Shown piece by piece: positions 2,914 to 39,064 of a stretch of 39,064 bases of DNA. The position numbers and the translations under genes are program-made. The notes beneath the pieces were generated by a model, which worked only from the letters and a program-made list of their open reading frames with translations, did not search any database and was not told the origin of the DNA. The DNA comes from a virus: IMG/VR virus record IMGVR_UViG_3300029951_000066; one strand, written 5' to 3'. Positions within the stretch are counted from its first letter, which is position 1; every line of letters begins with the position of its first letter.

Positions 2914-2925
2914 GGCGAACTCCGG

Positions 2926-3213
2926 TTATGTGGCGGATGATTCAATGCACTTGAGGTCTTGCAGGCGACTGTTGATCGGCGTCACGCGTCTCTTGAATTC
3001 CAAGGTCAACTCTGCTTTTTTGCGCTTCAGCGCCTGCGTCTCGATAGCGATTGGGTTTAACTCGCCAGGAACCTCAAAGGTTAGTTCGTGCTCGCATACG
3101 AACACCCAGCCGATACAAGTCATGTCTTGGTAAGTGGCGAATTTGTATTCGAGCAGCTTCGTGTAATCGTCTACGGCGGCGTGGATAAAACCCTTCTGCG
3201 TGATGGTTGGCAT
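2926..3213 (-). CDS. Hypothetical protein (95 aa)
   Basis: ORF with GGAG RBS upstream of ATG at 3213. Confidence 0.5.
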   Translation of the reverse strand: MPTITQKGFIHAAVDDYTKLLEYKFATYQDMTCIGWVFVCEHELTFEVPGELNPIAIETQALKRKKAELTLEFKRRVTPINSRLQDLKCIESSAT

Positions 3214-3268
3214 GCCTATCTCCAGCGAAGAAAAAGAGGCGCCGGGGATGCGCGCCCAACGGGGTTGG

Positions 3269-4033
3269 TTATGCGCCTAGCAATTCTTCGCGGCGCTGGT
3301 GGTAACGCTCGGTCGCTTCTTCGCGGTCGGCTTCGGGCAATTCGCTGATCAGGGTGGCGTCGGCGTCGAGTGCGTCGATGTCCATGCGGCTGTTCATGGT
3401 GTCGATGAGGTGCTTGGTACCGACGCTGAGTGCGGCAGGTTGGGGCTCGACGGGCGGTTGGGCGCTCGTCACACCGCCGCGCAACTCTTTCGCGCGTTCA
3501 GCATAAGCATCACTAGCTGCCTGCACGTCGCTCTCGGAGGTGAGCTTCATTGCCATCACCTTCGCCGCGTTCATCGCGTTGCGACCAGTAGCGGCCTTGA
3601 TTGCCTTGAGCACGTCATCGAGCGTTACGACCGTGAGTGGCAATATCGTATGCGTCGCTTTCTTGCCCTTCGTAGAATTCAGCGACAGCGATATTTCGCG
3701 CTCGATATTGCTCAAATGGCTGATGCGAATTCCACCCACGACCATCCCGCCGAACTTCACAGCATGATCGTTGTAAAGCGTCATGGACTTGCCGATCCAC
3801 TCGCGCCCGTCCTCACCCCACGCGAAAATCAGCAACTTGCGCATGGTCTTTCCAGGCTTGAACGGACGCCCCTGATCATCCTTGTAGTGCAGGATCACGG
3901 GCTGTTCATCATTGCCCATGCGCACGTCTGTAACGGTGATCGTCATATCGCCGTCAAGCAGTTGATCGGCGTTTAGTTGATCCGACTTCGGTACGATCGT
4001 ACTGCGAAGATTTGTGATATCAGACGTAGCCAA
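3269..4033 (-). CDS. Hypothetical protein (about 254 aa), probable TTG start; possible recombination partner of the adjacent nuclease (position only)
   Basis: ORF; AGGAGG six nt upstream of the TTG at 4033; overlaps the nuclease stop. Confidence 0.5.
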   Translation of the reverse strand: MATSDITNLRSTIVPKSDQLNADQLLDGDMTITVTDVRMGNDEQPVILHYKDDQGRPFKPGKTMRKLLIFAWGEDGREWIGKSMTLYNDHAVKFGGMVVGGIRISHLSNIEREISLSLNSTKGKKATHTILPLTVVTLDDVLKAIKAATGRNAMNAAKVMAMKLTSESDVQAASDAYAERAKELRGGVTSAQPPVEPQPAALSVGTKHLIDTMNSRMDIDALDADATLISELPEADREEATERYHQRREELLGA

Positions 4034-4931
4034 TTTCAACCTCCTGAGATTTGAATGCGTACGGCGGCAGGTCTATCGTGGTGGTGCTGTCCGCATAGCC
4101 AGGCCATACATTAGTGCGCAGGCATTCCTCGTAGATGTCCAACAGGCGGTGGACTTCGAGAAATCCTTCCTCGCGGCTCTCATTGCCTAGTTCATACGAT
4201 GCCGCGGCATATGGCCATTCGGACTCGACGGCGATAAAAATGAATTTCTCGACAGAAACATTTGCCGCTACACCATAGCCGCCAGAGTAAAAGGCATCCT
4301 GCCGGTGATAGTTCTTGCGTGCTGCGACTCTCGCAAATTCTGCTTTCGATGCGTCGCCACAGGTTTTCACATCGAGCAGCACGACTGAGCTTTTGCTGAG
4401 CGGACGCACGAAGTCAGGACGGCACCTGCATTTCACGTTGGTGATTGAATCGGTCCAGTAGCCCGACACCTCGGCGCGACCGCGCGACAGAAACTCACGA
4501 ATCTCCGGCAAAGCGCGCACGCTCTCAGCCTGCCGCATCGCCACTTCGTACTGACCGAGCGCAATCGGCAACTTCTGTTGGTTCTCAGTGGCCCACGCAG
4601 ACCACCATTCCATAGCCGCGATACTGTCATCGGACGGCTTCTTTGCATTCCACTGGGCTTCGGTGGGCTTGCGTGGCGCATTCTTCGGCGGTACTGCGTA
4701 CCGCTTGCCAAACTCTTCCGGCTCAAGAATCGCGCAGTGCGCAAGGTGGCCCTCAAGTTGCCCGGGCTTAGCGACACGAGCGGGCGCATCGGGCGACTGC
4801 CACGCATGGAAGATTGCTGGCGCCTTGTCGATCAGGTCGAGGCCTGTCTTCGAGATGCTGTCGCGATCGGCATGGTATTTCTCGATGGAGAGGTCGTAGA
4901 CGACCCTACCGGGGAACATGGAGTCATTCAT
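4020..4931 (-). CDS. PD-(D/E)XK family nuclease (phage recombination exonuclease-like)
   Basis: 303-aa ORF; RPDF...VVLLDVKT (D...D/E-x-K) and downstream Q/Y motifs typical of the PD-(D/E)XK fold; ATGA overlap with the upstream gene. Confidence 0.6.
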   Translation of the reverse strand: MNDSMFPGRVVYDLSIEKYHADRDSISKTGLDLIDKAPAIFHAWQSPDAPARVAKPGQLEGHLAHCAILEPEEFGKRYAVPPKNAPRKPTEAQWNAKKPSDDSIAAMEWWSAWATENQQKLPIALGQYEVAMRQAESVRALPEIREFLSRGRAEVSGYWTDSITNVKCRCRPDFVRPLSKSSVVLLDVKTCGDASKAEFARVAARKNYHRQDAFYSGGYGVAANVSVEKFIFIAVESEWPYAAASYELGNESREEGFLEVHRLLDIYEECLRTNVWPGYADSTTTIDLPPYAFKSQEVEIGYV

Positions 4932-5164
4932 TTATGGGCATCCCAACTCTGGTCATCGTCGTAATCGTTTCGCGCGGCGAAGCCTTCGATATATGCCGCG
5001 TTCTGGCCCGTGCGCTTTTCCTGCTTCTTTGCCTTGCACGACTTCGAGCAGAACAAGCCCCAGCCGCGCTTAACATCTGCTTCACGCGCTTGGAAAGGGT
5101 CTCGACACCATGCACATTTACGGCTCACCATCTTCGGCGCCCCATAGTGCTTTTGTGCGTTCAT
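4928..5164 (-). CDS. Small zinc-ribbon protein (78 aa; CAWC...CSKSC)
   Basis: ORF from internal ATG (MNAQKHYG) with RBS; two CxxC pairs. Confidence 0.5.
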   Translation of the reverse strand: MNAQKHYGAPKMVSRKCAWCRDPFQAREADVKRGWGLFCSKSCKAKKQEKRTGQNAAYIEGFAARNDYDDDQSWDAHK

Positions 5165-5343
5165 AACAGCACCACCAGATAAGCCGAAACAATCGCCAGA
5201 AGAGTAGCCAGCACCATCCCGCAGACCGGGTGTGCGCGATCCCATGCGACGAAGCGGCGAAAGGTTGAGCGCAGGAAGCTGCGAGCACGATATAGCGCGC
5301 CCGAGCGGATGCGTTTAAGGTCGACGTTTGGAGAGAGGTTCAT
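5161..5343 (-). CDS. Small membrane protein (60 aa)
   Basis: ORF with GGAG RBS; C-terminal hydrophobic segment; ATGA overlap with the downstream gene. Confidence 0.4.
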   Translation of the reverse strand: MNLSPNVDLKRIRSGALYRARSFLRSTFRRFVAWDRAHPVCGMVLATLLAIVSAYLVVLL

Positions 5344-9488: not shown

Positions 9489-9543
9489 GCAGCCTCGCGC
9501 CGATCAGTTATGCCGTGGCTCAACATTCGTTGGAGATTTTGTG

Positions 9544-9747
9544 ATGACGCCAGAACGATTGAGGGAGAAGCGCACGCAGCATGTAGCGCGTGAGCTTCTG
9601 CGTATGCAGATGGCTGTCGTGGAGCAGAACGCGGTGATGCACTCAGCGATGCTTAAAGAGCAAGAAAATTACATGATCGCCGTTGAAACTGCGTCTCGGG
9701 AGTTCAATGCGATTTGTTTGGCGCTTTCGTTTACGAGATTCGTTTAA
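9544..9747 (+). CDS. Hypothetical protein (about 68 aa)
   Basis: ORF from internal ATG of the 9466 track ORF. Confidence 0.4.
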   Translation: MTPERLREKRTQHVARELLRMQMAVVEQNAVMHSAMLKEQENYMIAVETASREFNAICLALSFTRFV

Positions 9748-9749
9748 CC

Positions 9750-9986
9750 ATGCAGTCCCTCGCACGCCTCTCAGCAATCCTCTGCCGCGACCCTGTGTTT
9801 CGACAATGGCTCGTGCACGACACCGATTTCAATCCGGGGGATGCGGCAGAGGCTGCCGAGGTCGTGCGCGTCGTATGCGGCATAGACAGCCGCCGCGAGC
9901 TGGACACGAATCCGACCGCTGCTGAGCGGTTTCACGAGCATTTGCGCAAGCCGTTCATCGAATGGAGAGATCATCATGAAGGATAG
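9750..9986 (+). CDS. Hypothetical protein (about 78 aa)
   Basis: ORF from ATG at 9750, immediately after the upstream stop. Confidence 0.4.
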   Translation: MQSLARLSAILCRDPVFRQWLVHDTDFNPGDAAEAAEVVRVVCGIDSRRELDTNPTAAERFHEHLRKPFIEWRDHHEG

Positions 9987-10338
9987 TCATCGCAACCTAT
10001 GCCTGGCGGTCGAGGCGAATCCAGGGGCCACGTTCGATGAATTGGCCGAGGTGATGTGCCAGAAGCCGGACGCGATCCGCAAGAAGGCGCTACTACTTAT
10101 CGAGCTGGGCATGCTGCGTGGTGATCGCAAAGGTCGAGCGCAGAAAACTCGTCTATTCCGCACTAGCGAGCCCCTTGGCGACGCTGCCGAGTTCAGGATA
10201 AGCGCCTACACGGCCAAGCGATACGCAGAGGCACAGGCGCGGCTAGCGCCGCCTCCTGTGCCGGATTTAGCGCATCTCATGCCCGAATTCGTTCGGCAGT
10301 CGCTACGATTCACATCAACCCTGGAGCAATCATGCTGA
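9976..10338 (+). CDS. Hypothetical protein with a possible winged-helix DNA-binding domain
   Basis: 120-aa ORF; FDELAEVMCQKPDAIRKKALLLIELGML resembles wHTH. Confidence 0.5.
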   Translation: MKDSHRNLCLAVEANPGATFDELAEVMCQKPDAIRKKALLLIELGMLRGDRKGRAQKTRLFRTSEPLGDAAEFRISAYTAKRYAEAQARLAPPPVPDLAHLMPEFVRQSLRFTSTLEQSC

Positions 10339-10445
10339 AATTCTGCCTTTGCACGCTGTTTGTCGCCTTTTTGGTCGGACTGTTCGTCCATCCGGTGGCT
10401 GCATCGCTCGTTTTCGCGGGTGCTTGGCTAGTCCACACCCGATAA
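10332..10445 (+). CDS. Possible small hydrophobic peptide (37 aa)
   Basis: Manual translation MLKFCLCTLFVAFLVGLFVHPVAASLVFAGAWLVHTR; GGAG RBS; overlaps the upstream stop. Confidence 0.3.
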   Translation: MLKFCLCTLFVAFLVGLFVHPVAASLVFAGAWLVHTR

Positions 10446-10447
10446 TC

Positions 10448-10476
10448 TTGCCAAATCATCAAGATTGAGGTATGAA
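10448..10476 (+). promoter_or_regulatory. Putative sigma70-type promoter (TTGCCA-17 nt-TATGAA) upstream of a small ORF and the HNH gene
   Basis: -35/-10 hexamers with 17-nt spacer; the spacer contains a 6-bp inverted repeat (atcttg/caagat). Confidence 0.35.
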
Positions 10477-10505
10477 TACCGCCATCAACATTTCGGAGAG
10501 TCGCC

Positions 10506-10661
10506 ATGCCAGCAGCTAAACAGGGCGAGAAGCTTTCCGACTTCCTCTCGCGGTTTGTGTCATCGAAACGTGAGGATCGCAAGTACTCGAACGTCAAGCA
10601 GCGCCTTGCTTTGGGCTACTCGGAAGCCAGAGAGCAGGCCAAGAAAGGAGTTAGGTCATGA
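10506..10661 (+). CDS. Possible small protein (51 aa)
   Basis: Manual translation with GGAGAG RBS; stop overlaps the HNH start (ATGA). Confidence 0.35.
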   Translation: MPAAKQGEKLSDFLSRFVSSKREDRKYSNVKQRLALGYSEAREQAKKGVRS

Positions 10662-11152
10662 GACGAATTGCGATCGCTAGGTTACATTTTTTGTTGCGCC
10701 TCGATGAAGCGACCGGGTTCCTGTGCTGGCGAGGGGCTAGCTTAGGGCATCACGCCGACGATCGCGCCGGAAGCCTGAAGAGCGATGGGTATCGCCGGGT
10801 CTACATCGATGGTTCGCGCATCTATGAGCACCGAATCACGTTCGCGATGACAAATGGTCGTTGGCCAGATTTGCACGTTGACCATGCCAACGGAGTACGT
10901 GATGACAATCGTCCCTGCAATCTTCGCGAGGCAACAAGGTCCCAAAACAATGCAAATAGTAAGATTTCTTTGCGTAACACCAGTGGGCTCAAGGGTGTCG
11001 GGTTCCACAAGCAAATAGGTAGATTCAGGGCCGACATACGGATTGAGGGGAGCCTCAAGTACCTCGGCCTATTCGATAGCGCAGAAGAGGCGCATGCCGC
11101 CTATATGCGAGCAGCGCAGCAATTCCATGGCCAATTCGCGAGGGCAGCATGA
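10658..11152 (+). CDS. HNH homing endonuclease with AP2-type DNA-binding domain
   Basis: Motifs HVDHANGVRDDNRPCNLREATRSQN (HNH) and SGLKGVGFHK...YLGLFDSAEEAHAAY (AP2-like); AAAGGAG RBS. Confidence 0.8.
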   Translation: MRRIAIARLHFLLRLDEATGFLCWRGASLGHHADDRAGSLKSDGYRRVYIDGSRIYEHRITFAMTNGRWPDLHVDHANGVRDDNRPCNLREATRSQNNANSKISLRNTSGLKGVGFHKQIGRFRADIRIEGSLKYLGLFDSAEEAHAAYMRAAQQFHGQFARAA

Positions 11153-11300
11153 GCAAAATCTCACAGAAACCGAGTCAACCCAAATCGCAGCCTAGGCTTC
11201 CCACTGGGCACTTCGACCGGAATGGCACCAGCCAAGGCCAGCAGAGCGGCGCAGTACGCAAGTCGCCAGACGCCTACAACGATCGCAAGGAGCAAAAATA

Positions 11301-11765
11301 ATGCCCCGTGACGTCAAAGGAAAGGCCAAGGGCGACGAGACCATGAGCGCGGTCAACATGACCGACATGCGCCGCACCAACGCTGCGAAGAAGGAAGGCG
11401 CGACCAATGCCATGACCAACTCTGACGGCCCCGAGTATCCGTACGGCCTAAAGGTGCATCTCGACCACGACAGCATGAAGAAGATGGGCATGAACGATAT
11501 GCCCGAGGTCGGTAGCGAGGTCACGATGCATTCGAAGGCGCATGTCGTCGGCGCTCGTGCAGAGAAGCGCGAGGGCGGCGATGAAGAGCGCCATGTCGAG
11601 TTGCAGATTACGCACCTTGGCGTTCATCACAAGCCGGATGGCATGACCAAGCAAGCGCAGGCTGGCAGTGGTAAGACGCCGGATGCTGGCAAGGTGACCG
11701 AGAAGAAGGGCGCTAAGCCGGGTTATACGAAGCCTGAGCCGGCATACGGCAGGAAGCGCCACTGA
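11301..11765 (+). CDS. Hypothetical protein (154 aa)
   Basis: ORF with AAGGAG RBS. Confidence 0.55.
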   Translation: MPRDVKGKAKGDETMSAVNMTDMRRTNAAKKEGATNAMTNSDGPEYPYGLKVHLDHDSMKKMGMNDMPEVGSEVTMHSKAHVVGARAEKREGGDEERHVELQITHLGVHHKPDGMTKQAQAGSGKTPDAGKVTEKKGAKPGYTKPEPAYGRKRH

Positions 11766-11941
11766 TGCCTAACCAGCTTATCACCATGGAAGAAATGGCC
11801 GCGGACTTCGATCGGATCTGCCTGGAGAACGGTGTAACGCCGCAGGAGTTCTTCGGGGCTTTGCGCCATGCTGCTGCGACTGAATACGATGCGGATGAGG
11901 ATGCCAGAGTAAGGAAGATTTATGGGTTGGAGGCTTATTGA
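11765..11941 (+). CDS. Hypothetical small protein (58 aa)
   Basis: Manual translation; TGATG overlap with the upstream gene. Confidence 0.4.
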   Translation: MPNQLITMEEMAADFDRICLENGVTPQEFFGALRHAAATEYDADEDARVRKIYGLEAY

Positions 11942-12116
11942 CATGATGCACCTACCTTCGATTGTGAGTCCGCCGCAGCGCAAGTCACACATCTTTTGCG
12001 AGGCTGGGAAGTGGGTGCTGCGCACATTCGGACCTGCTATGGCATGGGATATGCCGTTTGAGTCGGTTACGGATATTCAGCGGTATCACAAGCGCTACAT
12101 ACGGAGATTTCGCTGA
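11922..12116 (+). CDS. Hypothetical small protein (64 aa)
   Basis: ORF with AAGGAAG RBS. Confidence 0.45.
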   Translation: MGWRLIDMMHLPSIVSPPQRKSHIFCEAGKWVLRTFGPAMAWDMPFESVTDIQRYHKRYIRRFR

Positions 12117-12394
12117 TGACTATCGATTATGAGCGTGGAACTGGGCGCACGACAGAGCAAATGAAGGCTGCGCCGCGCGGTGCCGTATATGTTTCTCCGC
12201 ATCCTTTCGCCACCGACTATGTCCGCAAGCTCGCTGCGAAGATTTTGCGGGAAGACCTAAGGATCGTAGAGCCTTCGTGGCTAGACCATGGATGGCACGG
12301 CAAGATTTTGGAGGGCATCGTCGTGGACCATGCATGCCATCTGGATGACCATCATCGACAACTTCTTTTGAATGCCGAAACAAGGATTCGATAA
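12116..12394 (+). CDS. Hypothetical protein (92 aa)
   Basis: ORF with TGATG overlap and GGAGA RBS. Confidence 0.45.
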   Translation: MTIDYERGTGRTTEQMKAAPRGAVYVSPHPFATDYVRKLAAKILREDLRIVEPSWLDHGWHGKILEGIVVDHACHLDDHHRQLLLNAETRIR

Positions 12395-12828
12395 TGGGCG
12401 TCAACCTCAAGACCAATGGCGCTGGCGGGGAGTTGTCTTACGAGACGAAGACCTACGTTGCGCCCGACGAGAAGATCCAGCCGCTTCACGACTACATCGT
12501 GGTCGAGCCGCTGCCGATAGAGCATTCGAAGATTCTGCTTGTTGTCGAAGAGATCAAGCCGGTTCGCGGGATCGTGAAGGCTGTTGGGCCTGGCCACTTT
12601 CCATTGCGATATGACCACCCGGACAAGCACCGTCGCACGAAGATGTGGCGCAGCAAGACATTTTTGCCAACCCAGGTGAAGGTGGGCGATATCGTTGAGC
12701 TCGGCTCGGTGCAGTTGGAAGGCCGGTATGTTGGCTACAGCTTTCAGCAAATTTATTGGGGAAACACGATGCATATCATGTGCCGTGAAGCCGATGTGAG
12801 CGGGATAGTCGAACAGGAGGCAGCATGA
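12394..12828 (+). CDS. GroES-like co-chaperonin (Cpn10 family)
   Basis: Motifs PLHDYIVVEP, GIVKAVGPG, VKVGDIVEL and C-terminal ADVSGIVEQ parallel E. coli GroES (PLHDRVIV, GEVLAVGNG, VKVGDIVIF, SDILAIVEA). Confidence 0.65.
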   Translation: MGVNLKTNGAGGELSYETKTYVAPDEKIQPLHDYIVVEPLPIEHSKILLVVEEIKPVRGIVKAVGPGHFPLRYDHPDKHRRTKMWRSKTFLPTQVKVGDIVELGSVQLEGRYVGYSFQQIYWGNTMHIMCREADVSGIVEQEAA

Positions 12829-13802: not shown

Positions 13803-14201
13803 ATGGCCGGTAAGAAAGGACAAGCGCCGCGTACTGAGTTCTCTCAGAAGCTGTTCGATGAGATATGCGAGCTTATTGCAGACGGCAAGAGCTTGCGCGA
13901 GACGTGCGAACTGAAGGGCATGCCCGACCGGGCGACGTTTAATAAATGGCGCAAGCGTGCGCCAGAACTGCAAGCTCAGTACGATCAGGCCTACAAGGAT
14001 TACGAAGATTCTTGCCTGCAAGATATCGTCTATATCGCGGATACGGAAAAGGACTCGGCGATCGCAAAGAACCGCATGGACGCTCGTAAGTGGGAGCTGA
14101 AGATACGCAACCGCAAGAAGTTTGGCGATAGCGTGCAGCATACCGGCGATCCGGAAGCACCGATGCAGCTCGTGCTCAATGGATCAGACGTACATGGCTG
14201 A
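13803..14201 (+). CDS. Terminase small subunit (HTH-type)
   Basis: N-terminus KKGQAPRTEFSQKLFDEICELIADGKSLRETCELKGMPDRATFNKWRKR matches the common small-terminase HTH family; AGGAG RBS; immediately upstream of the large subunit. Confidence 0.75.
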   Translation: MAGKKGQAPRTEFSQKLFDEICELIADGKSLRETCELKGMPDRATFNKWRKRAPELQAQYDQAYKDYEDSCLQDIVYIADTEKDSAIAKNRMDARKWELKIRNRKKFGDSVQHTGDPEAPMQLVLNGSDVHG

Positions 14202-15546
14202 GTTCAAGCTCACTACTAGGCAGGCCGAAGCCCAGGAGATGCTGAACGGGCCGGCGAAGCACGTGATGCTTGCGGGTGGTTCTAGGTCCGGAAAGACGCT
14301 GCTAATTATTAGGAAGCAGGTCCAACGTCGTCTTAAGGCGCCCGGCTCACGCGGCGCTGTGCTTCGTTTTCGCTTTGGTCACGTCAAGAACTCAATCATG
14401 CTGGACACCTTTCCTAAGGTGATGTCCATATGCTTTCCGGGCGTCCCATATGACGTGAATAAGTCGCTGGGCTATGCGACGTTTCCCGGTGGCAGTGAGC
14501 TGTGGTTCGGCGGCCTCGATGACAAGCAGCGCACTGAGAAGATTCTCGGCACAGAGTTTGCCGACATCTTTTTGAATGAGTGCTCTCAGATTCCATATTC
14601 GGGGCGTGAAATGGTCATGACGCGCTTGGCGCAGAAGGTACGCGACAATGCGACGGGCAACGATCTGATCATGAAGATGTATTACGACGAGAATCCGCCC
14701 GACAAAGGGCATTGGACCTATCGCCTGTTTAAGACCAAGGTGAGTCCCGAAACGCGTGCATCGTTGAGCGAGCCCGACAACTACGCCTTCATGCAGATCA
14801 ATCCTCGCGACAACCAAGAGAATCTGTCCGCCGACTACCTGAAGACGCTGTCCGAAATGTCGCCACGGATGCGCAAGCGCTTCCTCGAAGGAGAGTTCCG
14901 CGATGCCTCGCCTAATGCACTTTTCTCCGAAGAAGTGTTTGAACGTTGGCGCAACATTGATGACGAACTGCCGGACATGTTGCGTATCGTCGTGGCAGTC
15001 GATCCGTCAGGCGCCGATGATGATGACAACGTCGACAATGACGAAATCGGAATTGTCGTGGCTGGTCTCGGAATTGATGGGAATGGGTATGTATTGGAGG
15101 ATCTGACGTGCAAGGCTGGTCCTGCTGTGTGGGGCAAGGTTGCGACGGATGCCTATAAGCGTTGGGGCGGCGATCGCATCGTCGGTGAGGTGAATTATGG
15201 CGGCGCGATGGTCAAGTTCGTGGTACGCACGGCGCTGCCGAATGTACCGTTCAGGCCGGTCACCGCGACGCGTGGCAAGGTCATCCGAGCCGAGCCGATA
15301 TCAGCCCTGGTAGACGCTGGAAAGGTCCGCTTAGCTGGCGTGTTCCAAGAGATGGAAGACGAGTTATGCGCAATGACCACGCATGGCTATACCGGCGAGA
15401 ACAGCCCGAACCGTGCCGATGCGATGATATGGGCTATGACCGATCTATTCCCCGAGCTGGCCAAGCCGGAAGCAATTAAACCAGAGCCAAAGCCGCAGTT
15501 CATTCATCGGCGCCTTGGGTCAAACACAGGCTGGATGAGATCATGA
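14194..15546 (+). CDS. Terminase large subunit
   Basis: Walker A GGSRSGKT near the N-terminus; about 450 aa; between small terminase and portal. Confidence 0.85.
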   Translation: MAEFKLTTRQAEAQEMLNGPAKHVMLAGGSRSGKTLLIIRKQVQRRLKAPGSRGAVLRFRFGHVKNSIMLDTFPKVMSICFPGVPYDVNKSLGYATFPGGSELWFGGLDDKQRTEKILGTEFADIFLNECSQIPYSGREMVMTRLAQKVRDNATGNDLIMKMYYDENPPDKGHWTYRLFKTKVSPETRASLSEPDNYAFMQINPRDNQENLSADYLKTLSEMSPRMRKRFLEGEFRDASPNALFSEEVFERWRNIDDELPDMLRIVVAVDPSGADDDDNVDNDEIGIVVAGLGIDGNGYVLEDLTCKAGPAVWGKVATDAYKRWGGDRIVGEVNYGGAMVKFVVRTALPNVPFRPVTATRGKVIRAEPISALVDAGKVRLAGVFQEMEDELCAMTTHGYTGENSPNRADAMIWAMTDLFPELAKPEAIKPEPKPQFIHRRLGSNTGWMRS

Positions 15547-26916: not shown

Positions 26917-28413
26917 ATGCCCGACTTCGGCTCCCCAGTCGCTACCGGTATAACACCGCCGAACCCTAACCAGCTTACACAATCGTTGTCCGGGATCTTG
27001 AGTCTCAAGAATCAGCAGCAACAGTTGCAGGTCGGGCAAGCGCAAGCGCAGCAGGCTCAGCAGCAGATGCAGGAGCGGCAGCTATTGCAGCAAACGTTAG
27101 CAAGTGGCACGGCGCCAGATGGAACCTCAGTAAAAGACTCTAGCGGCCAGATTGATCCGGTTGCGATGTCGAAATTTGCCAATACATCGCTGCCTCTGAC
27201 GGGGCAAGGTGTGCTGCAGTCGATCATCCAAACGCAGGATAATCACATCAAACTGAATGACTCAATCCGCGGACTGAGCCAGAACGTGAACAATGATCTA
27301 TCCGGAATCATTCGCTCAGGCGTCGGCTCGCCCGATCCTGTGGCGACGGTTGGGCCGGCTCTGGATGCGTATGCGCAGCAGAATCCAACTGCTGCTAGTG
27401 CGGTCTCACGCGTCAAAGCACTATCGCAAAACCTCAATCCGCAGATGCCTATGGATCAGCGGAATATGGCAATCCAGCGTCTGGCTCAGCAATTCCAGCC
27501 TGCGGCTACTACGGTGGCGGAACAAACACCGGGCATACGTACTACAACCGGCCCAGGCGGCGGCGTCCAGGCAGTACAGACTAATCCGCTTTCCGCTGTC
27601 CCAATGGGCGCGGTCGGACCAGAAACGGCGCAGGGCATCCCGCTGGGTGAGCGTTCGCAAGTCGGCACCAATGCACTGACCGGTGGCCCCACTGTGGTCA
27701 ACAAGAATGGACAGGGGCAAGTTACCGGGATCACGAATGCGCCGACGCAGAACGTCTACGTCCCGCAACCCGGAGACGCACAAGCGATTCCCGGACTCTC
27801 TGCCGAGCGCGAGGCGGCGCGCAATGCATACACAAGCGCTCCTTCTGCTCACACCAACAATCAACTGGTCCTGCAGAATATCGATAACGTTGCGGCAACC
27901 GGCGCTGTCGGCCAGAAGGCACGCGCCGCCCTCAACGTCTTTGGGCTTGGCCAAGATACCGATGCGGCAACTGCATATGACTTGGTGGGTAAGGGCTTGG
28001 AGCGCTCCGCATTGCAGGCAGCACAGTCGATGGGGCCGAATACAAATGCTGGTCTAGACGCGCAGATCAAGGCTAACGGTTCGCTTGGCTATACGCCCGC
28101 TGCTATCAAAGAAGTGACGAAGCTGAACGATGCTCTTACGACTGGCGTACAGGCGTATCAGCCTGGCCTAGAACGCGCCATCGCTGCGAATCCGTCTGCT
28201 GGCGTTATCGCCAAGCGCCAGTTCGACCAGCAATGGGGCGCGAACTTCGACCCGAACATCTTCAAGTACTACAACGCGATCAAGGCTGGTGACACTGGCG
28301 AGCAGCAGGCTATCGTTAAGCAGTTGGGCGGCCTGAACTCAAAAGGCTACAACGACATGATGCAGAAGGCTCAGAACCTCCAGAAACTGTCTAATACTGG
28401 CGGTTCTCAGTAA
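26917..28413 (+). CDS. Gln-rich putative internal virion protein (498 aa)
   Basis: ORF with AAGGAGA RBS. Confidence 0.55.
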   Translation: MPDFGSPVATGITPPNPNQLTQSLSGILSLKNQQQQLQVGQAQAQQAQQQMQERQLLQQTLASGTAPDGTSVKDSSGQIDPVAMSKFANTSLPLTGQGVLQSIIQTQDNHIKLNDSIRGLSQNVNNDLSGIIRSGVGSPDPVATVGPALDAYAQQNPTAASAVSRVKALSQNLNPQMPMDQRNMAIQRLAQQFQPAATTVAEQTPGIRTTTGPGGGVQAVQTNPLSAVPMGAVGPETAQGIPLGERSQVGTNALTGGPTVVNKNGQGQVTGITNAPTQNVYVPQPGDAQAIPGLSAEREAARNAYTSAPSAHTNNQLVLQNIDNVAATGAVGQKARAALNVFGLGQDTDAATAYDLVGKGLERSALQAAQSMGPNTNAGLDAQIKANGSLGYTPAAIKEVTKLNDALTTGVQAYQPGLERAIAANPSAGVIAKRQFDQQWGANFDPNIFKYYNAIKAGDTGEQQAIVKQLGGLNSKGYNDMMQKAQNLQKLSNTGGSQ

Positions 28414-31046
28414 TGGACGATCTGCTCGCCACGATCCAAAGCGGAAACCCGAGCGCGTCGCCGGCCGGACCAGCGCCGGCTGCGTCGTCGGCTAGTGGCG
28501 CATTCAGTCCCTCCCAGAGCTATGGCACGCCAGCAAAGCTGCTCGACAATCTCGCGTGCGAGGAAAGCAGCGGCGACCAGTATGCTATTAACCCGAAAAC
28601 CCAGGCCATGGGTCCGTACCAATTCACCCCATCCACTGTAGCCATGCTGCAAAAGCAGGGCGTCAAGTTCAACCCATTCGACCCGCAAGAAGCGCGTAAT
28701 GCTGCCGACTACTATTTGCAGCAACTCAAAGGGCAGAACGGCGGCAGCTATGAAGGCGCTTTGAAGGCCTATGGCGGGTTCAAGACCGCCGACCCTACAC
28801 AGTATGTCGCGAAGGCGATGAGCGGTGTAACGGGCCAGCAAAGCGCGCCGGCACCGACGATTCCAGGGCAGTCGAACTCCGGTGCTCAGCCACAGAGCGA
28901 CTCGGGTCCAATGTCGGATCTATTCTCGACGCTCCAGCAGGGTCCATCGCAACCTTCGAAGGTTGCGCAACCTGCCGCGCCCGCACCTGATAAGCAGCCT
29001 CCGGCGCAAGGCGGATTTCTCGCTGGCCTAGGCCGGTCGACGGCTGGACTCGCAGATACAGTGCTAGGCGCTCCTGGCGCTGCTGCTGGCGCCGCTGACT
29101 ACGCTGTTCGTCGTGCATTTGGACAGAATCCCCAGCAAGCGCAGCAGAGCTCCGCAGGCGACTTCGGCGGATCAGTCCATCCTGTCGGCAACGCTTTCGG
29201 CGTGACCAACACGCCCGAGTACCAGAATGAAGCATCACAGCAAGCTACGCAGGCCGTAGGCAATGTGGTCGGGAAAGGCGTTAATGCAGTGGCCAGTGCA
29301 ACCGGTCTACCGCCGCAAGACGTTTCCAATATGGTGGGGTCTGCATCGATGTTGGTCCCCGGTGCGGCTCACCTCGCTGCTCCGCTAGCGAAAGGCGTGG
29401 CGAACGAAATCGGCTACGCCGCTTCTGCTGCTGGCCAAGGCATAAAGGCTGCGGCTGGCGCTGTCGGAGATGCAGCGTCTGATGCCGCGAAAGCAGTTGG
29501 GCAGACAGCGGGCGACCTCAAGAACGCGACCAGCGTGGCGACTGGGATCAAGACGCCTCAACAAGTCGCTACCGAGCAAGCTGCTGGGCAAGCATCTATA
29601 CCTGTTGTAGGCGCTGGTGCTGCAGGCCGTCCGAGTATGGGCGCGGCGGGAACCTCGTTCGCGCAGCAGGCTGCGGCCGAGGGCGTTCCCGATGCGCTTG
29701 TCGGGAAAATTGCCGCGGCGGAAAAGAGTGGCACCTTGAACCCCGTCTCAGCAGGCCGGCACATCGAGGCCGGTTCTTTGCCAGTTCCGATCGATCTGAC
29801 TGCCGGACAAGCGAGTAGCGACGTGCGTTTACTCTCCGACGAATTGAATGCTCGAGGAAAGAACCCTGAACTGGCGAACCGCTTCAATATGCAGAATGGC
29901 CAGATCGCTGACAACCTCAGTGCGATCCGGGATCAAGTCTCGCCAAACGTAAATGTTCCCTCTGGCGCGCCGACGGGACAAGCGCTTGTTGATGCATACA
30001 AGCAGATGGACGCGCCGATCACGCAGCAGATTTCTGATCTGTATTCCAAGGCACGCGGCGCCGACGGCACACCCGCTTTGGTCAACGCTGCGCCGCAGAT
30101 GAAAGATTTCGCTTCGCAGATCGGTCCCACACGGTTCAATGCGCTGCCATCTAACGTTCAACAGATCTTCCGCGACGCAAGCGCCAATCAGGTATCTCTC
30201 CCGGCTGGCTTCGAGCAGAACGGTTCGTCAGTGCGTCCGATGAATGTCGGCGACTTGATGGATATCGATAAAACGCTCTCGGGAGCCATGCGCGGCGCCA
30301 CGGATGGTTCAGTTCGGCACGACATCGGCGCACTGCGCGATAGCGTCGTGAATTCTCAGCTTGACCCTTCGGCGGCGGGATCGGACGCCTTCGCAGCGTA
30401 CAAGACCGCGCAGGCGAGTGCGCGAGCGCGTTTCCAAGCGATGGACTCGGACCCAGCCTACAAAGCCGCAGTGAACGATATAGCGCCCGCGGGAGAGCCT
30501 TCTGCGCTGGCCGATGACTTCGTGCGCAAGTACGTGGCTGGCGGGAAGACTTCAAACGTACAGAACATGATGCAGAACCTGTCGAATGATCCGGTCAATT
30601 CGGAGCTCGTCGCTTCCGGGTTGATGGACCATATCAGGAGCCAGGCCGGTGTCGACCTACGCACTGGGTCGGGGAATATCAGTCAAGCGGGCCTGAATAA
30701 ATCCCTTCAAAACTTGGGCGATAAGACGCGCATTGTGCTCGGTCCAGAGGCATCGCAGACGGTCGAGAAACTCGGCAATGTTGCGCGCTACACGCAGGAG
30801 CAACCGCGAGGCAGCTATGTCAATAACAGCAACACATTTGTTGCGTCGGTCGCAAACGCTGCCAAGTCATCGGCAGAGGGTGCGGCTAACGTTGCGGCTC
30901 ATGGGATTCCCGTTGGAACATGGACCCGGCAGGCACTCGCAAGGCGTGCTGATGCAAAATCCGTGGCCAGCTCGCTTGAGCCGGGTGCCGGACTTAAGTC
31001 GGTTCCGCTCAATCAATTACTCAATAAAACAAAGGGGAATCCTTAA
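28413..31046 (+). CDS. Internal virion protein with N-terminal lytic transglycosylase (SLT) domain
   Basis: Motif CEESSGDQYAINPKTQAMGPYQFTPST (E-S catalytic, AxGxxQF); 877 aa; TAATG overlap with the upstream gene. Confidence 0.75.
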   Translation: MDDLLATIQSGNPSASPAGPAPAASSASGAFSPSQSYGTPAKLLDNLACEESSGDQYAINPKTQAMGPYQFTPSTVAMLQKQGVKFNPFDPQEARNAADYYLQQLKGQNGGSYEGALKAYGGFKTADPTQYVAKAMSGVTGQQSAPAPTIPGQSNSGAQPQSDSGPMSDLFSTLQQGPSQPSKVAQPAAPAPDKQPPAQGGFLAGLGRSTAGLADTVLGAPGAAAGAADYAVRRAFGQNPQQAQQSSAGDFGGSVHPVGNAFGVTNTPEYQNEASQQATQAVGNVVGKGVNAVASATGLPPQDVSNMVGSASMLVPGAAHLAAPLAKGVANEIGYAASAAGQGIKAAAGAVGDAASDAAKAVGQTAGDLKNATSVATGIKTPQQVATEQAAGQASIPVVGAGAAGRPSMGAAGTSFAQQAAAEGVPDALVGKIAAAEKSGTLNPVSAGRHIEAGSLPVPIDLTAGQASSDVRLLSDELNARGKNPELANRFNMQNGQIADNLSAIRDQVSPNVNVPSGAPTGQALVDAYKQMDAPITQQISDLYSKARGADGTPALVNAAPQMKDFASQIGPTRFNALPSNVQQIFRDASANQVSLPAGFEQNGSSVRPMNVGDLMDIDKTLSGAMRGATDGSVRHDIGALRDSVVNSQLDPSAAGSDAFAAYKTAQASARARFQAMDSDPAYKAAVNDIAPAGEPSALADDFVRKYVAGGKTSNVQNMMQNLSNDPVNSELVASGLMDHIRSQAGVDLRTGSGNISQAGLNKSLQNLGDKTRIVLGPEASQTVEKLGNVARYTQEQPRGSYVNNSNTFVASVANAAKSSAEGAANVAAHGIPVGTWTRQALARRADAKSVASSLEPGAGLKSVPLNQLLNKTKGNP

Positions 31047-31054
31047 TGGTTTCC

Positions 31055-31567
31055 CTATGCCTTTGTAAAGCGGCCCGTTCTTTCGTCTCTTCCGCCGCGC
31101 TTATTAGCGAGTTGCTCTTTTCTGGTCGCCCAACGGAAATTATTCGGCGCGTATGGCCCATCATTATCGACGCGATCAATTTCGAGATTCCCGGGCCTTT
31201 CTCCGACGTCAGCGAGAAAATATGGGAAATTCAGCCATCTATCACAGACGACTATTCCCCTGCCACCATAGCAATGGAAGGCTGGATTTTCCGGATTGTT
31301 GCAGCGATCTATCATTGCTCGCCATACCCAATAAAGAGGCGTATTAGATTTTCCGCTCCGAATATACTTCCTTCCTGTCGGAGTAACACATCCGCAAGAT
31401 ATGAGCACGCTTTGCCGGAAACCACTGATGATTTTTTCGTTTCCACAAGAGCATTTACAGAGCCACTGCGTCGACTTCCCATCCCCCGATCCCCTAGGAA
31501 TTCTTCGAATAGCGGTCAGTTCGCCATGAACTTCGCCCGGTTGGATCCGTGTATTTTTATTCGGCAT
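31055..31567 (-). CDS. HNH-type homing endonuclease-like protein, antisense within the virion operon
   Basis: AGGAG RBS; Cys-rich CKCSCGN...CGC plus motif WVWRAMIDRCNNPENPAFHCYGGRGIVVCDRW common in phage HNH/AP2-type proteins. Confidence 0.6.
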   Translation of the reverse strand: MPNKNTRIQPGEVHGELTAIRRIPRGSGDGKSTQWLCKCSCGNEKIISGFRQSVLISCGCVTPTGRKYIRSGKSNTPLYWVWRAMIDRCNNPENPAFHCYGGRGIVVCDRWLNFPYFLADVGERPGNLEIDRVDNDGPYAPNNFRWATRKEQLANKRGGRDERTGRFTKA

Positions 31568-31607: not shown

Positions 31608-33881
31608 ATGGGAACGTCTGTCGTTCAGGCACCTGACGCAATATTGCAATTTTTCAATAATGCGGGGCTACCAAATGTCGGTGGAAGTCTGCTAACCCAG
31701 GTTGGCGGCGTCAACTATCCAACATTCGAGGATGCTGCTGGTAGCACTCCGCTGCCTAATCCGATCCCTTTGAACTCCCGTGGCGAGATTTCCAATTCGT
31801 CCGGTGTATCGAGTCAGCTTTTCCTTTTCGATGCGGTCGTTTATACCTTCACGCTATTCGATGCACACGGAAATCAAATTTGGGTTGCCGAAAATGTCAC
31901 AAGCGGCGGGGCAGAAACAGGCAGCATGACCGACGAAGGCCCATTCCTGGCCGGACCAACATTTACCGGTTCCATCACTGGAACTGCATTGACTATCAGC
32001 GGAGTGACCGGATCGGTTGCCATTGGTCAGACGTTGTTCGGCGCTGGTGTAACCGCAGGAACGACGATCACGGGGGGGGCCGGTACCTCATGGACCGTCA
32101 GCACACCGCAAACCGTCGCCTCTGAGCCAATGTCCTCGGCAGGCACAGATCAGTTTGCGCCTGGATTCAGCACGGTCCTGACCCTGGTCGGTTTCTATGG
32201 CAGCAAGTCGAATCTATGGATCCAGTTCGATGCTGCCTCGCAGGGAGAGGATACGTTTGGCCTCAATAATTTCACGTTGACCTTCAATGCTCCTATCCCC
32301 ATTGGTGTTCAAGCTATCTACATAAAAGGAGGCACTACAGTCAGTATTGGTGCACCCGGAACAGGGACAGTTACAGATTCCACCGTAGCCGCCAATGCAG
32401 GGATCGAGGCATCCAAGCTTTCCTATACTGCGCCCTACACTGGCGCCGTCGCTGAAACTGTCCAGGCACGGCTTTCAAATTCGGTCTCGGTAAAGGATTT
32501 CGGGGCAACCGGCAATGGTACAACTGACGATACGACAGCATTCCAGAGCGCCATCAACTCGGGCGCCACTCGGATCAGCGTGCCGGCTGGCACCTATCTG
32601 ATTACCAAGACGCTCAACTTCACGAATCGTGGGAGCGTGCCTTTAGTCATAAGTGGCGACGGGGGATACTTAGAACAAAATACGGGGACAACGCTTCTAT
32701 TCCAGACGGGCACATGGATGGCCGATATGACTGGCTGTCAATTCCTACATCTAGAGCATATGCGCTGGTTTTCCAATGGCGCCGCGACTGGTTTTTCGAC
32801 GCTAGGCTGTCTGTACGCGAGGTCAACTGTAGTCGGCTTCGCCATATTCAACTCGATGTTCAAGATGATCATTGAGTTGCCGTCAAGCTCAGGAAGTAGC
32901 GCGGGGTCTATCGCGCTAGCAGACAACTGCATGGAAAATTGTCTGTTCGATATGTGCTGGTTTCTTTCCGACACTCCTTATGCTTCCACATTGGCGAATG
33001 AGTTAAGTTTCGTGTCAACGTACGCGACAGTCGCTAACACTACGTTCAGCAATACCGACAAAACGTTTAGGCAATGTATTTTCTTGGCTAGGAACGGAAC
33101 GGGCTGCTTCTTACAGGGAGTGGCCGATACCACATTTGATCAGTGCAATTGGTCTCTAAATGGCGCTCTAGGCGGCGCCATAGCCGCAGCCATGACGATT
33201 TTGTCATCGGCGGATGGTTACCAGAACTGCTCAAACATACGATTCACTGGGGATTTTGAATCATTCCCAGCAATCGCAGCACTTACCGGAAATACAGAAG
33301 GCCTCGTATTCGACTGCACCTCGGCGGGCCTGACAGGTTCGGCATATATCCTAAACACATCGGGCACCACTCACGATGGCATGAAGGTAAAGGTTAATAC
33401 GCTGTCCGGAGCGCAATTGAAGATGATCCTCACTAGCTCCGGATCATCGATAGTGAACAATGCCGAAGTCCATATGAATAATGGGCAGACACTACTAGAT
33501 GGGGCACTCACGATCAATGGCGGGACGATTTACGGCGGAGCAAATGATCTTTCCAATTCTGGCGTTCTGTCGATCGCTCCAGCATCAAGTTTTATCGCAA
33601 CTTACGAGAACTCAAAGCTGACTGGGAGCGTGTCTTGGGCGCCAGGTTCTGTGCCCGGCAATAGTACCGTTCTGTTTCCCGGAACAGTTACAGTGCCTGG
33701 CGCGGTAGGAGGGTCTTCCGTAGCAGTAAAGGTGCCATATGCGATACCATTTTGTATCGCTAGTGGCTTCGTAACGACCAGCAATCAGGTTGAGCTTATG
33801 CTTTCCAATGTCAACGGCGCTGCATCCGCAGCTTTCGGTACTGGCACTTGGATAGTGGAAGTGAAGAAGGTCTACGCTTGA
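31608..33881 (+). CDS. Tailspike with pectate-lyase-fold (right-handed beta-helix) depolymerase-like domain
   Basis: Motif VKDFGATGNGTTDDTTAFQSAINSGATRISVPAGTYLI typical of Pectate_lyase_3/GH28-type tailspikes; N-terminal module shared with the 23926 protein. Confidence 0.8.
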   Translation: MGTSVVQAPDAILQFFNNAGLPNVGGSLLTQVGGVNYPTFEDAAGSTPLPNPIPLNSRGEISNSSGVSSQLFLFDAVVYTFTLFDAHGNQIWVAENVTSGGAETGSMTDEGPFLAGPTFTGSITGTALTISGVTGSVAIGQTLFGAGVTAGTTITGGAGTSWTVSTPQTVASEPMSSAGTDQFAPGFSTVLTLVGFYGSKSNLWIQFDAASQGEDTFGLNNFTLTFNAPIPIGVQAIYIKGGTTVSIGAPGTGTVTDSTVAANAGIEASKLSYTAPYTGAVAETVQARLSNSVSVKDFGATGNGTTDDTTAFQSAINSGATRISVPAGTYLITKTLNFTNRGSVPLVISGDGGYLEQNTGTTLLFQTGTWMADMTGCQFLHLEHMRWFSNGAATGFSTLGCLYARSTVVGFAIFNSMFKMIIELPSSSGSSAGSIALADNCMENCLFDMCWFLSDTPYASTLANELSFVSTYATVANTTFSNTDKTFRQCIFLARNGTGCFLQGVADTTFDQCNWSLNGALGGAIAAAMTILSSADGYQNCSNIRFTGDFESFPAIAALTGNTEGLVFDCTSAGLTGSAYILNTSGTTHDGMKVKVNTLSGAQLKMILTSSGSSIVNNAEVHMNNGQTLLDGALTINGGTIYGGANDLSNSGVLSIAPASSFIATYENSKLTGSVSWAPGSVPGNSTVLFPGTVTVPGAVGGSSVAVKVPYAIPFCIASGFVTTSNQVELMLSNVNGAASAAFGTGTWIVEVKKVYA

Positions 33882-36152: not shown

Positions 36153-36626
36153 ATGGGTGCCGTAACCTTCCAATTCGTCGAGGGGAGGGGCCTCAGCTCC
36201 TCTCTAATTGAATGGTTTGATCACGACCGTTACTCTCATGTCGATCTCGTCTTGCGAGACGGCACGTTGCTAGGCGCCCGCGACGATATGATTCTAGGCA
36301 TACCGGCAGGTGTGCAGATTCGCCCGTCCAGTTATGTGGACGGGGAATCAGTTCTCAGGGTGTCGGTGCCGTGCACAGACGAGCAGGAAGCGGCGTTCTA
36401 CGCCTATGCTCAAGAACAGGTGGGGAAGCCATATGACCAAGAAGCCATTGCCGCCTTTGTGGTGGGTCGGAATTGGCGCGATCCTAACGACTGGTACTGC
36501 TCTGAGCTGGGCGCTGCTTGCACTGAGAAAAGCGGGATTGTTCCGCCGTTGATTGCGCCTTGCAACAAGATAGCGCCTGGAGATTTGGCGCTGCTTTTGT
36601 CTGCTCTGGTTGAGATTCAGCCGTGA
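36153..36626 (+). CDS. Putative permuted papain-fold cysteine peptidase (YiiX/C92-like), possible second cell-wall hydrolase
   Basis: His-then-Cys order (YSHVDLVL ... WYCSELGAAC) reminiscent of the permuted NlpC/P60-like amidase family. Confidence 0.45.
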   Translation: MGAVTFQFVEGRGLSSSLIEWFDHDRYSHVDLVLRDGTLLGARDDMILGIPAGVQIRPSSYVDGESVLRVSVPCTDEQEAAFYAYAQEQVGKPYDQEAIAAFVVGRNWRDPNDWYCSELGAACTEKSGIVPPLIAPCNKIAPGDLALLLSALVEIQP

Positions 36627-37108
36627 TTAGCGAACTCTCCGTGAAGTCTTTCCCTGGCCTCATGAAGAGCGTTGCCAGCCTCTTCCTTCGATATGAAATA
36701 TCCCACGCATTTTTGCTTCCCATTGGATTGAAGTCGAGCTACCCATCTCGCACTGTATTTATGCCAAAACACTCCTTTTATTCCAGAAGTGTTATCAGTT
36801 CTAATCGACGCGTTTTGGGCGTTCTGCGAGTGTGTAGCATGCCTCAGATTAAAGAAGCTATCGTCCGATCTGCAGGTATTGCGATGGTCTATTTCATGTT
36901 CAGGGAAGACGCCGGTCATATATAACCAGGCGAGCCTGTTGGCCTTGTAGTTTTTGTTATCGACCATGATCTTTCTGTAGCCATCCGGCTCTATTGATCC
37001 TGCTAGATCGCCAGGCTTCAGACGATTAGAGGAAGGCTTGACCCAAGTGAATATCCCTGTTTCGGGATCATAGTGAAGGACTTCTTTTAGGCGTTCTTGA
37101 GTAAGCAT
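36617..37108 (-). CDS. HNH homing endonuclease with AP2-type DNA-binding domain (paralogue of the 10658 gene)
   Basis: Motifs ERLKEVLHYDPETGIFTW, EIDHRNTCRSDDSFFNLRHATHSQN, SGIKGVFWHK...VGYFISKEEAGNA; GGAG RBS at ATG 37108. Confidence 0.8.
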   Translation of the reverse strand: MLTQERLKEVLHYDPETGIFTWVKPSSNRLKPGDLAGSIEPDGYRKIMVDNKNYKANRLAWLYMTGVFPEHEIDHRNTCRSDDSFFNLRHATHSQNAQNASIRTDNTSGIKGVFWHKYSARWVARLQSNGKQKCVGYFISKEEAGNALHEARERLHGEFANHG

Positions 37109-37198: not shown

Positions 37199-37432
37199 TC
37201 AGTCGTCCGACTCGCCGCGCTCAACGTCTAGGGCGCGTATATCCGCTTTACGATGGTTGGTCTTAGTCACCTTGGTCTTAGTGCCAAGGTGGTACTTCCC
37301 GCAGACGTGGCAGCGATATGGCACGCGGCGCAGGCTATGGATCCGGTGCTTGCTGCGGTTTGTGACCTTCTTCGCTGCTTCGAGCGATTCGAAGGGCACC
37401 TTACCGATACATAGCTCTGCGTCGTCTTTCAT
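37199..37432 (-). CDS. Small Cys/His-rich basic protein (77 aa; YRCHVCGKYH)
   Basis: ORF in track; CxxC/H cluster. Confidence 0.45.
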   Translation of the reverse strand: MKDDAELCIGKVPFESLEAAKKVTNRSKHRIHSLRRVPYRCHVCGKYHLGTKTKVTKTNHRKADIRALDVERGESDD

Positions 37433-38532: not shown

Positions 38533-39053
38533 GATTTATCTCCATGCGCAGCGGTCTTCATAAAGACGAGCCAGTGTGTGAGCCCTTTGCGGCCGCTTAG
38601 ATGGCCAAAGAGCGGCTTGACCTCAGCCAACGCCAAAACCTCACTCACCTTGATCTGCGTTTCATTCCACTTGAAGATCAAAACGCCATCCACGGAGAGC
38701 ACGCGAAAGCACTCTGCGAAGCCTCTGCGTAGGTCGTCGCGCCAGTCGGGACCGAGTTGGCCATACTTAGCTGCCAACCAACTCTTGGCTCCAGCACGCA
38801 CCAAATGCGGCGGATCGAACGAAACCAGTTTGAAAGCGCCGTCCGAATACGGCAAAGCACGGAAATCCAGCATCACGTCAGGCTCAATGCGGAGCGTGCG
38901 CGTGCCGCTGTCGTTACCATGCGAGCGGTCAGTAACGGTCAGCACCTCGTGACGCTGGTCGCCAAAGATCACGCTCGGGTGCTGGCGGTCAAGCCACATC
39001 ATTCGTCCACCGCAGCACGGGTCGAGAATTGTCTTTTCGGCTACGTCGCTCAC
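38529..39053 (-). CDS. Small SAM-dependent DNA methyltransferase-like protein (amino-methyltransferase motifs I and IV), orphan; GTG start lies in the terminal repeat
   Basis: Motif I-like ILDPCCGG and motif IV-like DPPH (DPPY variant); GGAG RBS; no adjacent restriction endonuclease gene. Confidence 0.55.
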   Translation of the reverse strand: MSDVAEKTILDPCCGGRMMWLDRQHPSVIFGDQRHEVLTVTDRSHGNDSGTRTLRIEPDVMLDFRALPYSDGAFKLVSFDPPHLVRAGAKSWLAAKYGQLGPDWRDDLRRGFAECFRVLSVDGVLIFKWNETQIKVSEVLALAEVKPLFGHLSGRKGLTHWLVFMKTAAHGDKS

Positions 39054-39064
39054 GCTCCGCTCCC
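38938..39064. repeat. Terminal redundancy, copy 2 (identical to 1-127)
   Basis: Exact 127-nt identity with the window start. Confidence 0.9.

Follow-up and report, generated by a model that had tools for sequence, protein, structure and literature searches.

Three putative free-standing homing endonuclease genes occupy sites that are empty in relatives of a P22-like Burkholderiales phage

Results

Genome organization and relatives of the phage

The window, by which we mean the whole stretch of DNA that was analysed (39,064 nt, GC 56%, IMG/VR record IMGVR_UViG_3300029951_000066), carries three genes of HNH or HNH-like type, referred to here as HNH1, HNH2 and HNH3 (Table 1). Its first and last 127 nt are identical (1-127 = 38938-39064), and it is therefore a complete, circularly assembled genome of ~38.9 kb. 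A length of 127 nt is typical of an assembler k-mer overlap, so the identity of the ends is no evidence for physical terminal repeats. The layout follows from PHROG and Pfam assignments. An early arm that is read leftward includes a repressor-like HTH gene, a gene of the RecE/exonuclease VIII-like kind and a DNA methyltransferase. The arm read rightward has replication genes of the DUF1376 primosomal type as well as a Holliday-junction resolvase, and a long rightward block encodes TerS, TerL, a portal of P22 type, the scaffold and coat proteins, the ejection proteins, a tailspike and an endolysin. The Gp10-like gene, a member of a capsid-associated family, lies upstream of the terminase genes and not beside the coat gene, and it does so likewise in two related loci (L008 and L038). 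A small ORF (4928-5245, minus strand) has a weak match to phrog_1271 'HNH endonuclease' (E 4e-7) and a Cys-rich CxxC...CxxxC motif; it was considered as a fourth HNH gene and rejected, as it has no HNH motif, and its product is probably a zinc-ribbon protein.

Table 1 Coordinates of the features discussed, numbered from the first letter of the window
Feature	Position	Strand	Remarks
Inverted repeat AATCTTG-9-CAAGATT	10444-10466		perfect, 7 nt; arms 10444-10450 and 10460-10466; overlaps -35 hexamer
Sigma-70-like element TTGCCA-17-TATGAA	10448-10476	+	upstream of resident 51-aa ORF
51-aa ORF	10506-10661	+	resident, basic; first gene of block to terminase; not part of a mobile element
HNH1, putative free-standing HNH(N)-AP2 homing endonuclease gene	10658-11152	+	164 aa, intact ORF
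HNH_3 domain of HNH1	~10823-10951	+
AP2 domain of HNH1	~10985-11131	+
50-aa ORF	11149-11301	+	resident; in empty-site relatives directly after, or overlapping, the 51-aa ORF
Gp10-like gene (epsilon15 gp10 / BPP-1 Bbp20 family)	11301-11765	+	resident, 3' of HNH1 insertion; PF21628, E 1e-12
Terminase small subunit TerS	13803-14201	+	Sf6 type
Terminase large subunit TerL	14194-15546	+
HNH3, HNH-like gene	31055-31567	-	170 aa; phrog_374, E 1.6e-50
HNH2, HNH(N)-AP2 endonuclease gene	36617-37108	-	163 aa; ATG start, GGAG upstream
77-aa gene	37199-37432	-	resident, upstream of HNH2; terminal gene of leftward unit in relatives

The nearest cultured phage is Xanthomonas phage PBR31, with a portal that is only 37% identical, and TerL homologues of 70-76% identity occur in Ralstonia, Burkholderia and Paraburkholderia genomes. 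Sequence comparison places the phage among the temperate, P22-like phages of Burkholderiales. Loci are designated below by L numbers. Related viral loci came from alignment-based scans, and a scan with a TerL profile gave 80 of them; a megablast search of positions 9500-12500 against phage records returned no match, and single-protein scans of viral contigs recovered identical copies of the same phage only. Many metagenomes contain this phage nearly unchanged. One copy lies on an 89.9-kb contig (Ga0311357_10000215, JGI 3300030524; L110, L114 and L119) and another source has it on 101 kb; at over two genome lengths, the former contig could represent either an assembled concatemer or host DNA in which the phage resides as a prophage.

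HNH1 combines an I-HmuI-like nuclease domain with an AP2 domain

The assignment of 10658-11152 to an HNH-AP2 endonuclease, made in a sequence-only reading of this DNA, is borne out by matches to Pfam HNH_3 (PF13392; E 2.8e-14, above the cut-off), to AP2 (PF00847; E 1.8e-5, 25.4 bits, under the 33.3-bit cut-off) and to phrog_99 'HNH endonuclease' (E 1.9e-58). An NCBIfam search gave no match for any of the endonuclease genes. The AlphaFold model of HNH1, calculated with 51 homologues as input, is confident (pLDDT 95.7), and the protein consists of an I-HmuI-like HNH(N) nuclease domain and an ERF-like AP2 domain. Residues D75, H76, N88 and N97 of HNH1 align with D74, H75, N87 and N96 of I-HmuI in a HMMER alignment, so that the D-H...N...N constellation is present in an HNH_3-type domain with AP2 at the C-terminal end. 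Among the 51 homologues, D75 and H76 do not vary, and conservation of N88 and N97 is 90% or higher. In I-HmuI, H75 is said to have been identified by Shen et al. in 2004 as the general base, with D74 and N96 as metal ligands. The only cysteines of HNH1 are C23 and C87, and a CxxC motif is absent.

The likeness to I-HmuI (PDB 1u3e), the HNH nicking homing endonuclease of Bacillus phage SPO1, has limits: sequence similarity is marginal (E 0.075), the C-terminus of I-HmuI is a helix-turn-helix region and not AP2, and I-HmuI is encoded within a group I intron whereas HNH1 is free-standing. Neither an intron nor an intein is present at HNH1, and the flanking ORFs are complete and collinear with uninterrupted homologues.

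HNH1 lies between two small resident genes of the terminase block

The start of HNH1 overlaps the stop of the 51-aa ORF as ATGA (10658-10661), and its stop overlaps the start of the 50-aa ORF in the same manner (ATGA, 11149-11152). The 51-aa ORF belongs to a family of basic proteins of 47-54 aa, with the consensus MPxRxxGEKLSxFIGRFVxSKRE..KQRLAVGYSEARE, whose gene stands first in the block towards the terminase in over 30 related phages and prophages of the P22-like kind (for example L123 3001-3141 and L045 1272-1430). Homologues with 41-74% identity were found in 28 distinct metagenomic relatives, in L109 and in five bacterial genomes, among them the Paraburkholderia sp. HD33-4 prophage (L123). 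As to the identity of this family, searches gave only sub-threshold similarity to DUF6496, in 8 of 27 members, and no PDB relative.

In the closest relatives of the window the 50-aa homologue has its ATG 7 nt ahead of the 51-aa stop codon (…cATGcCTAA…). The length difference from relatives with an empty site is explained by the HNH1 ORF alone, with ATGA at both borders, and HNH1 is an exact insertion between two small resident genes. The AAGGAG used by HNH1 is the Shine-Dalgarno sequence of the 50-aa gene in relatives, and GAGGG from the last codons of HNH1 forms a new Shine-Dalgarno sequence for the displaced 50-aa ORF. As HNH1 replaces the Shine-Dalgarno sequence and start of the downstream gene and resupplies both, it is probably transcribed from the resident promoter candidate at 10448-10476 and translated as part of the operon.

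The promoter-like element belongs to the resident block

Upstream of the 51-aa ORF, a 60-nt gap amid tightly packed genes holds the element TTGCCA-17-TATGAA, which had earlier been called a good sigma70-like promoter. That call is confirmed only in part: sequence and position are as described, and nine of 12 positions match the consensus, but position 6 of the -10 hexamer is not T and a consensus scanner makes no call, and with a weighted score of 7.1 it is equalled or bettered by 132 of the 234,210 site/spacer combinations in the genome. The score alone is not above chance. In HNH-free relatives, promoter-like hexamers end 20-31 nt before the homologue of the 51-aa ORF, at a median control percentile of 6.8%, with nine of 27 in the top 5% of control windows; L017 and L025 have TATGAA in common with the window. 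The HNH-bearing L109 reads TATGAC there, so that a promoter-like element precedes the 51-aa ORF both with and without an HNH gene. This positional conservation, together with the intergenic placement, leads us to read the element as a resident block promoter. It probably serves the block from the 51-aa ORF to the terminase, and not an HNH cassette, and may be the late promoter.

The inverted repeat that had been described as 6 bp in length and contained in the spacer is present, with the difference that its arms measure 7 nt and that it overlaps the -35 hexamer. Repeats as long occur in ~3.5% of equal-sized windows of the genome, and as a candidate conserved operator the palindrome over the -35 hexamer is neither conserved nor enriched in the relatives (median control fraction 0.83).

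HNH2 and HNH3 lie on the opposite strand

The second HNH-AP2 gene had been placed at 36617-37108 on the opposite strand, and its coordinates, ATG start and domains are confirmed: HNH2 matches the same two Pfam domains as HNH1 (HNH_3 and AP2) and is 39% identical to it (E 6e-34). A PDB sequence search with HNH2 gave spurious repeat-protein matches only. The gene closes a leftward unit and meets 36153-36626, the last rightward gene, 3' end to 3' end with an overlap of 10 nt. The product of 36153-36626 shows a similarity, below the Pfam cut-off, to permuted papain-like C92 amidases (PF05708, E 8.7e-4); relatives have unrelated genes in its place, as in L089, where a lipase-like gene of 192 aa is found. 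The motif region of HNH2 contains one cysteine, and the best score for a dedicated HNH2 promoter was 4.6, which is not convincing.

HNH3 is a real gene by PHROG (phrog_374), as had been noted for an HNH-like gene at 31055, and that PHROG label is the sole basis for the HNH call, Pfam, NCBIfam and PDB searches having given no sequence match. Homologues occur in 1,172 phage records. The gene takes up an insert of 561 nt that separates the ejection-protein/transglycosylase gene (28413-31046) from the tailspike gene (31608-33881) and has ATGG at both borders. HNH3 ends 8 nt from the neighbouring gene and is oriented against the late operon. Promoter candidates for HNH3, such as CTGAAC-17-TATTAT, straddle the tailspike start. 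In place of the DH of HNH_3, the family to which HNH3 belongs has IDR(I/V)DN, which is IDRVDN in HNH3 itself and three homologues, and the canonical general-base His of the D-H dyad is absent. HNH3 belongs to an HNH-like family separate from that of HNH1 and HNH2.

All three sites are empty in relatives

Presence/absence polymorphism, a check that had been proposed earlier, holds for each of the three sites. For HNH1, 33 loci have an empty site, 28 of them in distinct metagenomic relatives and five in bacterial genomes, and there the next resident gene directly follows the 51-aa ORF. Otherwise the site is occupied only in L109, whose HNH-AP2 gene is 63% identical and has ATGA overlaps like those of HNH1. 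The flanking genes of L109 are 70-74% identical to those of the window, so that its copy has diverged about as much as its flanks, with no sign of recent transfer, which is compatible with vertical inheritance. At the HNH2 site, L089 and L096/L097 have no insertion, and their homologue of the 77-aa gene stands directly beside the last rightward gene. The HNH3 site is empty in L089, L090, L091 and L093, where the stop of the ejection-protein gene and the start of the tailspike gene overlap as TAATG.

Relatives carry HNH genes at other positions, among them one between DUF1376 and DnaB, a NUMOD4-HNH_3 gene, and one that separates head genes of L007. Between the sister contigs L096 and L097 the difference is a single HNH-AP2 gene (L096 5220-5735 versus L097 5684-5698), which lies between the same 113-aa and 99-aa genes and is 40% identical to HNH2. 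Another HNH-AP2 gene, 38% identical to HNH1, is found ~370 nt upstream of the 51-aa ORF in L049 (4002-4472) and L050 (742-1212), and the early/late boundary has thus seen more than one invasion. Within the phage's own population, every contig examined (24 per look-up) has all three genes, and a look-up through the exact 50-aa, 77-aa and ejection proteins found no HNH-less variant among these contigs. Since the population itself is uniform in this respect, the case for mobility comes from the comparison between lineages only.

Origin and number of the endonuclease genes

The best homologues of HNH1 are 63, 56 and 50% identical and those of HNH2 49-51%. The two genes are closer to outside homologues than to each other and were thus acquired independently, with no local duplication. 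The description of HNH2 as a paralogue accordingly stands as far as membership in the same HNH-AP2 family is concerned, and fails as a statement about duplication within the genome, given the low mutual identity and the difference in GC content (54.3% in HNH1 versus 46.7% in HNH2). Because the GC content of HNH1 is typical of the genome (z -0.26) and L109 has a 63%-identical gene in the same place, HNH1 looks like an old resident with mostly vertical descent in its sublineage. The low GC contents of HNH2 (z -2.4, the lowest of all genes in the genome) and HNH3 (49.3%, z -1.65) make these two look like later, independent acquisitions.

The HNH-AP2 family is very large, with ~104,000 clusters at 50% identity (E<=1e-3) and matches in 2,924-3,446 phage records. 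Three endonuclease genes exceed the number in any relative's examined stretch (loci up to ~22 kb). The load had earlier been judged unusually high, a view that does not hold: phage records have up to six family-matching places each, and Xanthomonas oryzae phages of 44 kb carry 6-8 free-standing HNH genes (PMC2248197), next to which three are modest.

Discussion

HNH1 has the fold and the residues of a site-specific HNH nuclease and an AP2 DNA-binding module, and the HNH genes occupy exact insertion sites that are empty in relatives. In our reading, to which we give a probability of roughly 0.8, this temperate P22-like phage of Burkholderiales carries three homing endonuclease genes that are free-standing, selfish and mobile. 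HNH-AP2 proteins are a class of homing endonuclease in that part of PMC10448857 which cites Magnani et al. 2004 (PMC520932), and HNN-AP2 genes are dispersed and variable among Xanthomonas oryzae phages (PMC2248197). By analogy with the family (PMC2248197, PMC10448857), homing would proceed by cleavage of the empty allele and copying by recombinational repair. The setting would be a co-infection or an encounter with a related prophage, in which the enzyme, bound through AP2 and N-terminal DNA-binding parts, would nick or cut the junction in a relative that has no HNH gene to interrupt it. Recombinational repair with the HNH-bearing genome as donor, a step beside which the phage's own RecE/exonuclease VIII-like gene may be noted, would then copy the gene and flanking markers into the cut genome.

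Among the closest known systems are the HNN-AP2 genes of phages Xp10, OP1 and Xop411 (Lee et al. 2007, PMC2248197). There, as here, an N-terminal HNH(N) domain with D-H, DNR, NLRE and EN/QN boxes is joined to a C-terminal AP2 domain, and the genes are free-standing between other genes, are present in several copies per genome and vary in position among relatives. In contrast, those phages are lytic siphoviruses and the present one is a temperate P22-like podovirus with Burkholderiales hosts; unlike their genes, HNH1 is translationally coupled at both ends and its site is common to one diverged relative, and only two copies in the genome are of the AP2 type. The IPA-HNH genes of Vibrio phage ICP1 (Barth et al. 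2023, PMC10448857) likewise combine HNH with AP2, are free-standing and mark variable positions, but they are too divergent for a Pfam HNH_3 match, whereas HNH1 and HNH2 match HNH_3 directly.

Past invasions might instead have left inactive relics among the three genes, HNH3 foremost and perhaps HNH2, which we consider a real if minority possibility. Progressive decay of HNN-AP2 genes is documented in Xanthomonas oryzae phages (PMC2248197). The lack, in HNH3, of a C-terminal extension of 40-60 aa that is found in its homologues suggests that it may be a truncated, decaying homing endonuclease gene, and its IDRVDN in place of DH would fit such a history, as would the absence from HNH2 of the near-invariant N and R of the DNR box. 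Against this, all four aligned members of the HNH3 family have the IDR motif, which is thus a family trait and no lesion, all three ORFs are intact, and HNH2 keeps D-H, N(+12) and N(+21).

It is less probable, and we think unlikely, that HNH1 has been domesticated and is kept for the benefit of the phage rather than as a purely selfish element. Such a protein could act as an AP2-type DNA-binding regulator, or it could cut the late-operon leader of related co-infecting phages or prophages and so serve in exclusion or competition. HNH1 persists at one site in lineages at 63-74% protein identity with its catalytic motif intact, is present in every population contig examined and is translationally coupled into the operon; in addition, homing endonuclease genes mark boundaries of genetic exchange and their DNA-binding domains have repeatedly been co-opted (PMC10448857; bioRxiv 10.64898/2026.02.23.707548). 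Most relatives, however, do without HNH1, and a benefit to the phage is indistinguishable here from marker exclusion by ordinary homing. The odds are similarly long for the idea that HNH1, kept across lineages of ~65-75% identity, is a weapon against related co-infecting phages and resident prophages, whose operon leader it would cut where no insertion interrupts it; if true, this would bias the inheritance of the adjacent packaging and structural module.

That one of the HNH proteins may function with the terminase in packaging had also been suggested; such a cofactor role, in the way of the HK97 gp74 type in cos phages, we consider very improbable. HNH1 does lie in the terminase transcription block, 2.65 kb upstream, and has been retained at its site in two diverged lineages. 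Ten genes separate it from TerS, however, and the TerS of Sf6 type (PF20901), the TerL with Terminase_6N/3/6C and the portal of P22 type indicate headful packaging. The 33 relatives with an empty HNH1 site have a homologous packaging module (TerL 59-89% identical where covered), so that nearly all relatives with the same module lack HNH1, and HNH2 and HNH3 lie 15-21 kb from the terminase genes on the other strand. Terminase-associated HNH proteins are encoded next to cos and the terminase and have [CxxC]2 zinc sites (PMC3592412), which HNH1 does not. The HK97 gp74 type, which is located beside cos and the terminase genes, has CxxC zinc sites, is without AP2 and is conserved among relatives, shares only the HNH superfamily with HNH1 and HNH2; adjacency to the terminase, a cos-type module, conservation in relatives and [CxxC]2 are all absent here.

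Equally remote is the earlier view of HNH1, the 51-aa ORF and the 10448 promoter as a self-contained mobile cassette, which their contiguity and the promoter-like hexamers just upstream had invited: the 51-aa ORF and an equidistant promoter-like element are resident in the 33 loci without an HNH gene, the inserted segment is the HNH ORF alone, embedded in the operon by its ATGA overlaps at both ends, and no unit of promoter, 51-aa ORF and HNH gene was seen at unrelated positions among 127 loci.

The reading that we prefer, that of three free-standing homing endonuclease genes, thus amounts to a correction of the annotation, away from a promoter-bearing HNH cassette and from a packaging factor. 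On this reading the structural gene block of the phage begins with the 10448 promoter-like element and the 51-aa ORF, both of them conserved. The HNH genes are real but ordinary, being of very common types with nothing conceptually new; what is mildly unusual is the neat wiring of HNH1 into the operon and its long persistence at one site. The locus offers unusually clean natural pairs of filled and empty sites, including a cultured Paraburkholderia prophage with an empty site, and such pairs would ease work on the target site and the homing of an HNH-AP2 enzyme.
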